A DNA stretch of 64,000 nucleotides from Escherichia coli (lineage in GTDB: Bacteria; Pseudomonadota; Gammaproteobacteria; Enterobacterales; Enterobacteriaceae). The translations under genes and the position numbers were made by a program. How positions within the stretch are numbered: the stretch's first letter is position 1; the number at the start of each line of letters is the position of its first letter. The notes beneath the pieces are model-generated. The model saw only the letters and a list, made by a program, of their open reading frames with translations, was not told the origin of the DNA and made no database searches. The stretch lies in assembly GCF_024502345.1 (NCBI RefSeq), contig NZ_JALDNN010000001.1, one strand, 5' to 3'. Shown here one piece after another: positions 32,491-32,757 of this stretch.

Positions 32491-32757
32491 ATGGAATGGC
32501 TGGTCAAAAAATCGTGCTGCAATAAACAAGATAACAGACATGTACTTATGCTCTGCGATGCTGGCGGCGCGATAAAAATGATCGCCGAAGTGAAGAGTGA
32601 CTTCGCCGTGAAAGTGGGGGATTTACTCTCACCTTTGCAGAATGCGCTTTACTGTATTAATCGTGAAAAGCTGCATACGGTGAAAGTCCTCTCCGCAAGC
32701 TGTTATAGCCCCGATGAGTGGGAACGGCAGTGTAAAGTGGCAGGGAAAACTCAGTAA
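32491..32757 (+). CDS. pmrD: signal-transduction connector protein PmrD
   Basis: 88 aa from [46 protein letters not shown].... The ORF track starts 10 codons upstream. Confidence 0.9.

Follow-up and report, generated by a model that had tools for sequence, protein, structure and literature searches.

The 7-bp tail-to-tail overlap of pmrD and arnF in Escherichia coli: an already catalogued, spacer-less convergent junction

In Escherichia coli the connector gene pmrD and the last gene of the arn operon, arnF, meet tail to tail and share their final bases, which raises the question of whether their transcripts must run into each other and, if they do, whether this has any bearing on regulation. 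The PhoP-PmrD-PmrA-arn circuit controls lipid A modification and, with it, resistance to polymyxin and colistin, and pmrD has been described in the literature as horizontally acquired. If the connector gene and its output operon were indeed hard-wired to each other by antisense transcription, this would add a layer of feedback to a textbook circuit. The stretch of DNA analysed here (the window, 64,000 nucleotides of contig NZ_JALDNN010000001.1) is E. coli chromosome and includes nuo, the men operon, pmrD, the arnBCADTEF operon and ais. The overlap in it is real, but it is an ordinary arrangement of low interest that is already annotated in RefSeq, and arnF-pmrD is already catalogued as an excludon, that is, as an overlapping-transcription pair. 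The junction is made up as follows.

32491-32757, + strand: pmrD coding sequence, 88 aa, stop TAA at 32755-32757; the RefSeq coordinates are identical
33137-32751, - strand: arnF coding sequence, 128 aa, last gene of arnBCADTEF, stop TGA (TCA on the + strand, 32751-32753)
32751-32757, both strands: tail-to-tail overlap of the two coding sequences, TCAGTAA, 7 bp including the stops, from the sequence and the ORF list

The first-pass annotation, made from the letters of the window, had placed the end of pmrD at 32757 and that of arnF at 32751, and the sequence, the ORF list and RefSeq all agree with these positions and with the 7-bp convergent overlap exactly. Its wording that the stop codons overlap by 7 bp is mistaken: it is the coding sequences that overlap, and the two stops share no base, as G32754 sits between them. 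Read on the + strand the overlap is the pmrD end T CAG TAA, and on the - strand it is the arnF end T TAC TGA. The gene identities are solid. PmrD scores 176.9 bits against the NCBIfam equivalog NF011994 (cut-off 96), with residues 1-85 of 88 aligned, and ArnF scores 140 bits against the equivalog NF002816 (cut-off 99), with residues 4-122 of 128 aligned; the flanking gene menE has an NCBIfam match as strong as those of the other genes here. The identical 7-bp overlap appears in the RefSeq/PGAP annotation of strains 99.9% and 96.8% identical to the window, so that this is a convergent overlapping pair in the full sense, with two genuine coding genes on opposite strands whose 3' ends share 7 bp.

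It is hardly credible that the overlap is an artefact of annotation, the product of a wrong frame or a misplaced gene end. The sole hint in that direction is that the family profiles stop a few residues short of both C-termini, but the first in-frame stop determines where a gene ends, each of the two frames is backed by a strong, full-length family match, the same ends recur in all Escherichia loci examined, and substitution in E. albertii has left both frames undisturbed. The artefact is thus refuted, barring programmed frameshifting or stop-codon read-through, and there is no indication of either. At the other end of pmrD, a Shine-Dalgarno sequence, AGGA, lies at 32480-32483 (+). An in-frame ATG 30 nt upstream of the start (window 32461-32490) opens a 98-aa ORF, MKTLSKQDNT..., and PmrD versions with a longer N-terminus, 103-110 aa, exist in some database entries; the Shine-Dalgarno sequence and the family profile support the 88-aa start over that of the 98-aa ORF.

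The arn operon, judging from gene orientation, is transcribed towards pmrD, and the elements that surround the junction are these.

33137-33472, - strand: arnE, NCBIfam match of 214.5 bits
33137-40101, - strand: the rest of the arn operon (arnE, arnT, arnD, arnA, arnC, arnB), from ORFs and the RefSeq annotation of a near-identical strain
40200-40216, - strand: PmrA/BasR-box-like direct repeat CTTAAGGTTAAGTTAAT upstream of arnB, a pattern match with 1 mismatch
32382-32490, + strand: menE-pmrD intergenic region with the pmrD promoter; no terminator after menE

The repeat CTTAAGGTTAAGTTAAT is what we take, from the known regulon, to be the candidate PmrA-activated arn promoter. A PhoP-box-like match in the menE-pmrD spacer, at 32423-32439, is weak, with 3 mismatches, and at that tolerance the pattern carries no weight as evidence: the window has 195 matches where 125 would be expected. 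The 3' side of menE (window 32382-32490) contains no terminator-like site, and transcripts of the men operon may enter pmrD and, beyond it, run antisense to arn. The RefSeq annotation of the closest complete genome, NZ_CP109924, matches the window base for base from ~24.4 kb onward. The two differ at window ~19900-24450, in the yfbM-elaD-rbn region, where NZ_CP109924 has IS5-like and IS630-like insertions; elsewhere in the window an ISNCY-family transposase gene at 48238-49209 adjoins a truncated ORF (window region 48028-49209).

How unusual is such an arrangement? As a class, it is statistically unremarkable: a published count for E. coli has 663 adjacent pairs that overlap, and in 75 of them the two CDSs are convergent (PMC4161906). 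Short tail-to-tail overlaps in prokaryotes typically comprise a few bases and arise by stop-codon movement or 3' extension (PMC2716372), and the pmrD/arnF overlap is alike; what distinguishes it from other short convergent overlaps is only that its partners are functionally linked and that their abutment is kept across three genera. Among the convergent pairs annotated in the region it is the sole one that overlaps, the others having spacers of 38-145 bp. In the nearest of these, ais/nudI, a 9-bp palindromic hairpin, TGACAGCCA-GTGA-TGGCTGTCA at 41022-41043, fills the 38-bp spacer and is likely a shared terminator.

Within E. coli the junction is close to invariant. An 801-bp query around the overlap was matched in 5418 of 5426 complete genomes (best match 99.9% identity), the 801-bp locus was counted as present in 5412, and the 40-bp junction itself was found ungapped in 5417 of the 5426. 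PmrD loci from further afield were gathered from one genome per species, by exact-protein look-ups and by a profile search for distant PmrD-family proteins, and gave the following distances between pmrD and arnF.

-7 bp: E. coli, Escherichia sp. and E. albertii
-6 bp: S. enterica and S. diarizonae, in which both stops form the palindrome TCATGA
+3, +3, +3 and +9 bp: genomes of the Citrobacter amalonaticus group
+8 bp: a Citrobacter-like metagenome contig, L021 (menE-pmrD-arnF-arnE-arnT)

Two loci with junctions that are not intact were left out of this comparison, L006 (-23; an arn deletion remnant) and L012 (+23; an arnF frameshift). Among the loci compared, every lineage with the order menE-pmrD-arnF has a near-zero gap, and we read this near-zero spacing as probably ancestral to the Escherichia-Salmonella-Citrobacter clade. 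PmrD-family genes are not always found at this site: in Klebsiella aerogenes (L017) the gene adjoins amn, away from arn, in Pseudocitrobacter (L018) it lies between an MFS transporter gene and a Fer4_19 gene, again away from arn, several further lineages have PmrD-family genes that are not adjacent to arn, and Intestinirhabdus alba (L013) has the order menE-pmrD-ais with no arn operon. The small PmrD-family proteins of these last three named loci carry the name 'histidine kinase' in many sources, which looks like a mis-annotation.

The spacing is conserved, and the sequence that makes it up is not. The junction DNA between the conserved codons for PmrD 'EW' and ArnF 'IFLP' has many indels, and the C-terminal tails of PmrD and ArnF vary by genus in both length and sequence (KTQ / KQRY, KPS / ARS and GNK / KTR). 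Because the NCBIfam profiles end at residue 85 of 88 in PmrD and 122 of 128 in ArnF, the overlapping codons fall in unconstrained tails. A single substitution within the overlap, in E. albertii, turns TAA into TAG at the end of pmrD and CGT into CGC, both Arg, in arnF, and is silent in both frames. As junction sequence and tails vary between genera, the comparison points to lineage-specific drift of unconstrained tails in a spacer-less junction as the probable source of the exact overlap, rather than to selection for the overlap. It could be, on the other hand, that selection for coupled transcription has kept the spacing near zero in three genera through a long divergence. The E. coli junction is ~17 nt longer than that of Salmonella, and an imperfect 13-nt direct repeat, GTGGCAGGGAAAA / GTGGGCAGGAAAA at 32737-32749 and 32770-32782, flanks the overlap with its copies 33 nt apart. 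A duplication of the arnF 3' end as the origin of the extra DNA was considered and set aside, as 77% identity over 13 nt in two copies is indistinguishable from chance.

Whether transcription could stop between the two genes is the next matter. A consensus scan of both strands found the junction free of terminator-like sites; so were the + strand between 32620 and at least 33800 and the - strand from 32751 through pmrD and menE. The matches that do occur are at chance level, 5 against 2.1 +/- 1.5 expected over 2 kb and 20 against 20.5 +/- 5.3 over 16.5 kb (25000-41500). Folding gave the same picture: the 201-nt junction RNA folds no better than its shuffles (z = +0.68 for the pmrD strand and +1.02 for the arn strand), and the 61-nt junction RNA of the arn strand, at -0.1 kcal/mol and z = +2.8, is essentially unstructured. 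Neither scan nor folding thus reveals a bidirectional intrinsic terminator at the E. coli junction, with its G+C-rich hairpin between an A-tract and a T-tract; a terminator is absent from the Salmonella junction too, and an Rfam scan of 31500-34000 returned chance-level matches only (E >= 0.19). The genomic situation is nevertheless one in which bidirectional terminators do occur. Like ais/nudI, the L021 contig has a candidate: at its positions 2310-2331 a perfect 8-bp hairpin, ACCCTGAG-CATCAT-CTCAGGGT, is followed by the U-tract GTTTTCTG, with the pmrD stop in one stem arm and the arnF stop in the other, a predicted compact terminator made of both gene ends, whereas pmrD/arnF of E. coli and Salmonella lack such a hairpin. 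Since the L021 hairpin goes with a gap of just 8 bp, the lack of room in E. coli is a state and not a physical limit. The view of the first-pass annotation that there is no room for separate terminators therefore holds in that there is no spacer, no intrinsic terminator and no stable hairpin, and goes too far in that termination could still take place inside the opposing gene and a hairpin fits where the genes stand 8 bp apart.

Termination inside the opposing genes is in fact the basis of a second explanation, in which cryptic terminators end both transcripts within tens of nucleotides and leave an RNA overlap that is minimal and inconsequential. Two terminator-like matches lie nearby, one on the - strand in arnF at 32858-32843 and one on the + strand in pmrD at 32601-32619, and overlapping terminators have been predicted by TransTerm for 146 of 165 E. 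coli convergent excludons (PMC12288877). Both matches, however, are upstream of the stops of the very genes they would end, so that their use would truncate the genes, and they belong to the chance-level set above; past the stops the scan of the two strands, over the stretches given above, found nothing. The match in arnF, a terminator-like hairpin with T-run, CTTCCCGGCTGGGAAG GGACTTTTTC, ~90 nt before the arnF stop, codes for LPGWEGTFS, has no conserved counterpart in Citrobacter or Salmonella and shows a broken T-run in E. albertii. As a terminator that would protect pmrD from arn transcription it was accordingly rejected, being placed before the arnF stop, specific to Escherichia and part of a set no larger than expected, and we regard it as a coding coincidence. 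The explanation by cryptic terminators as a whole seems to us quite improbable.

That the transcripts overlap had been claimed from the outset, and this is borne out: because each mRNA must hold its own stop codon, the pmrD and arn transcription units overlap by necessity, and arnF-pmrD is one of the 165 convergent excludons that recur in 50% or more of 58 RNA-seq data sets of MG1655 (ExcludonFinder, NAR 2025, PMC12288877), whose authors single it out on the ground that both genes belong to one pathway. The pair thus resembles the other convergent excludons in that list in having adjacent convergent genes with overlapping transcripts, here from one pathway. It differs from what the definition envisages in that the coding sequences themselves overlap, which makes the overlap of the transcripts trivial, and the mutually exclusive expression of an excludon, by interference or RNase III, is a possibility for this pair. 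Other data sets are silent to the extent that they were available: there is no pmrD/arnF entry in the 10 supplementary files of a p19 dsRNA-capture study (PMC7373196), and there are no rows for pmrD or arnF in the supplementary tables of a Term-seq study (PMC7815308) or of a SMRT-Cappable-seq study (PMC6131387). A literature search found no paper with a functional test of arnF-pmrD interference or of inverse expression of the two genes. Regulatory interference between the pmrD and arn transcripts is plausible.

The predicted course of the two transcripts beyond their stops is as follows.

32758-33186, + strand: predicted untranslated 3' extension of the pmrD transcript, antisense to arnF and arnE, from composition
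32382-32750, - strand: predicted 3' extension of the arn transcript, antisense to all of pmrD and its promoter region

Along the pmrD extension C exceeds G throughout, with C/G of 1.0-1.7 overall and 1.1-1.5 just after the stop. Its most C-rich, G-poor stretch, at 33109-33186 (+352..429), reaches 2.73 and is a candidate Rho loading region. The arn extension has a C/G of 1.47 in the first 78 nt after the arnF stop. Against the background of the window (median 1.00, 90th percentile 1.53) this bias is mild and mostly under the 90th percentile; the composition would be compatible with Rho-dependent termination, yet such a bias is what the antisense of coding DNA shows in general.

The explanation that best accommodates these results, and which we consider probable, is that pmrD and arnF form an ordinary, ancestral junction without a spacer, in which the overlap itself is unselected, transcription reads through in both directions, the transcripts end by Rho action, collision or trimming, and cross-talk is modest. 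With neither spacer DNA nor a terminator between the genes, each ORF would simply extend to the first in-frame stop that it encounters, and in Escherichia this would lay the last two to three codons of each gene over the other gene, 7 bp in total. Such an overlap would be cheap, and itself unselected, because the overlapping codons belong to short, poorly conserved C-terminal tails beyond the family profiles. Since no intrinsic terminator is present, RNA polymerase that passes the end of pmrD would continue antisense into arnF and arnE, and polymerase that passes the end of arnF would continue antisense over the 267-bp pmrD, towards its promoter; the expected outcome is a pair of mRNAs that overlap at their 3' ends. 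We infer that three factors most likely determine where these ends fall, namely Rho, which would act on the untranslated and mildly C-rich extensions, head-on encounters of polymerases and exonucleolytic trimming, and that any interference is probably modest in size and asymmetric in direction, as transcription of the long, PmrA-driven arn operon might depress the short pmrD more strongly than pmrD depresses it.

It is tempting to go further and to see in the junction a functional convergent excludon, in which arn read-through lowers PmrD by collision, promoter occlusion or RNase III and so provides negative feedback in cis, and in which, conversely, PhoP-driven transcription of pmrD might trim the expression of the distal genes arnT, arnE and arnF. 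The Salmonella circuit runs from PhoP, which activates pmrD, to PmrD, which protects phospho-PmrA, and on to PmrA, which switches on the arn (pbgP) operon while repressing the transcription of pmrD (PMC3140997, PMC2565834); the dependence of pmrD on PhoP is documented (PMC2565834), and the PmrA-dependent negative feedback is credited to Kato, Latifi and Groisman (2003), as cited in PMC3140997 and PMC2565834. If arn read-through were to dampen pmrD, PmrA activity would likewise lower the production of its own activator, but in the Salmonella loop PmrA acts by repression at the pmrD promoter and not by convergent transcription. For E. coli the premises differ as well. The first-pass annotation had spoken of the arn operon as one that PmrD indirectly activates, which is sound for Salmonella, whereas the pmrD of E. 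coli is induced by PhoP but its product reportedly does not activate PmrA/PmrB when Mg2+ is low, and feedback of PmrA on pmrD is described as absent (PMC3140997).

The layout of the locus has features in favour of such a function. There is no terminator between arnF and the pmrD promoter, ~370 nt away; the antisense extension of arn would span the entire 267-bp pmrD; the near-zero spacing is kept in Escherichia, Salmonella and Citrobacter; and the pair is in the RNA-seq excludome as one pathway, according to its authors (PMC12288877). Furthermore, in Salmonella, where pmrD abuts arnF, PmrA lowers pmrD, and in K. pneumoniae it does not (PMC2565834), and the PmrD gene of K. aerogenes lies by amn. 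Feedback in cis by arn read-through fits this distribution of gene orders, but an explanation by promoter boxes fits it equally well: the Salmonella feedback has been ascribed to a PmrA box in the pmrD promoter that is missing in Klebsiella (PMC3140997, PMC2565834), the K. pneumoniae authors giving the lack of a PmrA box in the promoter as their reason why pmrD is not repressed there (PMC2565834), and the presence of the box in one and not the other explains the species difference without antisense effects. Other observations weigh against a function. The 10 supplementary files of the p19 capture study hold no dsRNA entry for the pair (PMC7373196), L021 has its predicted terminator exactly at the junction, and natural deletions of the arn operon keep pmrD intact; these last two facts together indicate that read-through is not a conserved requirement. 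Salmonella pmrD with a 3' FLAG tag at its normal site is like the wild type for pbgP induction (PMC3140997), although this point is weak, as the pbgP-lac fusion of the strain may itself block arn read-through. On balance a functional excludon appears doubtful to us, and the more specific proposal of negative feedback on pmrD that is encoded in cis and independent of a PmrA box, with arn read-through acting by collision, promoter occlusion or RNase III, we hold to be unlikely. Were it true, such feedback would be kept in the Escherichia-Salmonella-Citrobacter clade and missing where the PmrD gene is at another site, as in Klebsiella aerogenes and Pseudocitrobacter, and it would be a second, hard-wired layer of the PhoP-PmrD-PmrA circuit that could contribute to species differences in the induction of polymyxin resistance.

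Regardless of its regulatory weight, the junction calls for practical caution in genetic engineering, as tagging or deleting the 3' end of pmrD changes arnF, and the reverse. Several disrupted versions of the locus came to light in the comparison. In E. coli 2017-19-1CC (L003, 2982-3933) an IS1-bounded deletion has removed pmrD and the whole arn operon, which leaves the order menE, IS1, ais. In L006 (3001-3320; labelled E. coli SCPM-O-B-8794) the arn operon is deleted and ~70 bp of the arnF 3' end remain beside an intact pmrD, whose ORF has a later end and an altered tail, ...KSANNVVLQ, with ais next. The arnF gene is apparently inactivated in Escherichia sp. MOD1-EC7003 (L005, ~3380), by an in-frame TAG for a conserved Trp, and in the type-strain assembly of S. 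enterica subsp. arizonae (L012, 3282-3400), by a 3' frameshift; sequencing error is possible in both. Finally, the catalogue of convergent excludons of MG1655 includes a further pair from the PmrA/PmrB (BasR/BasS) regulon, pmrR-basS (PMC12288877, Table 1).
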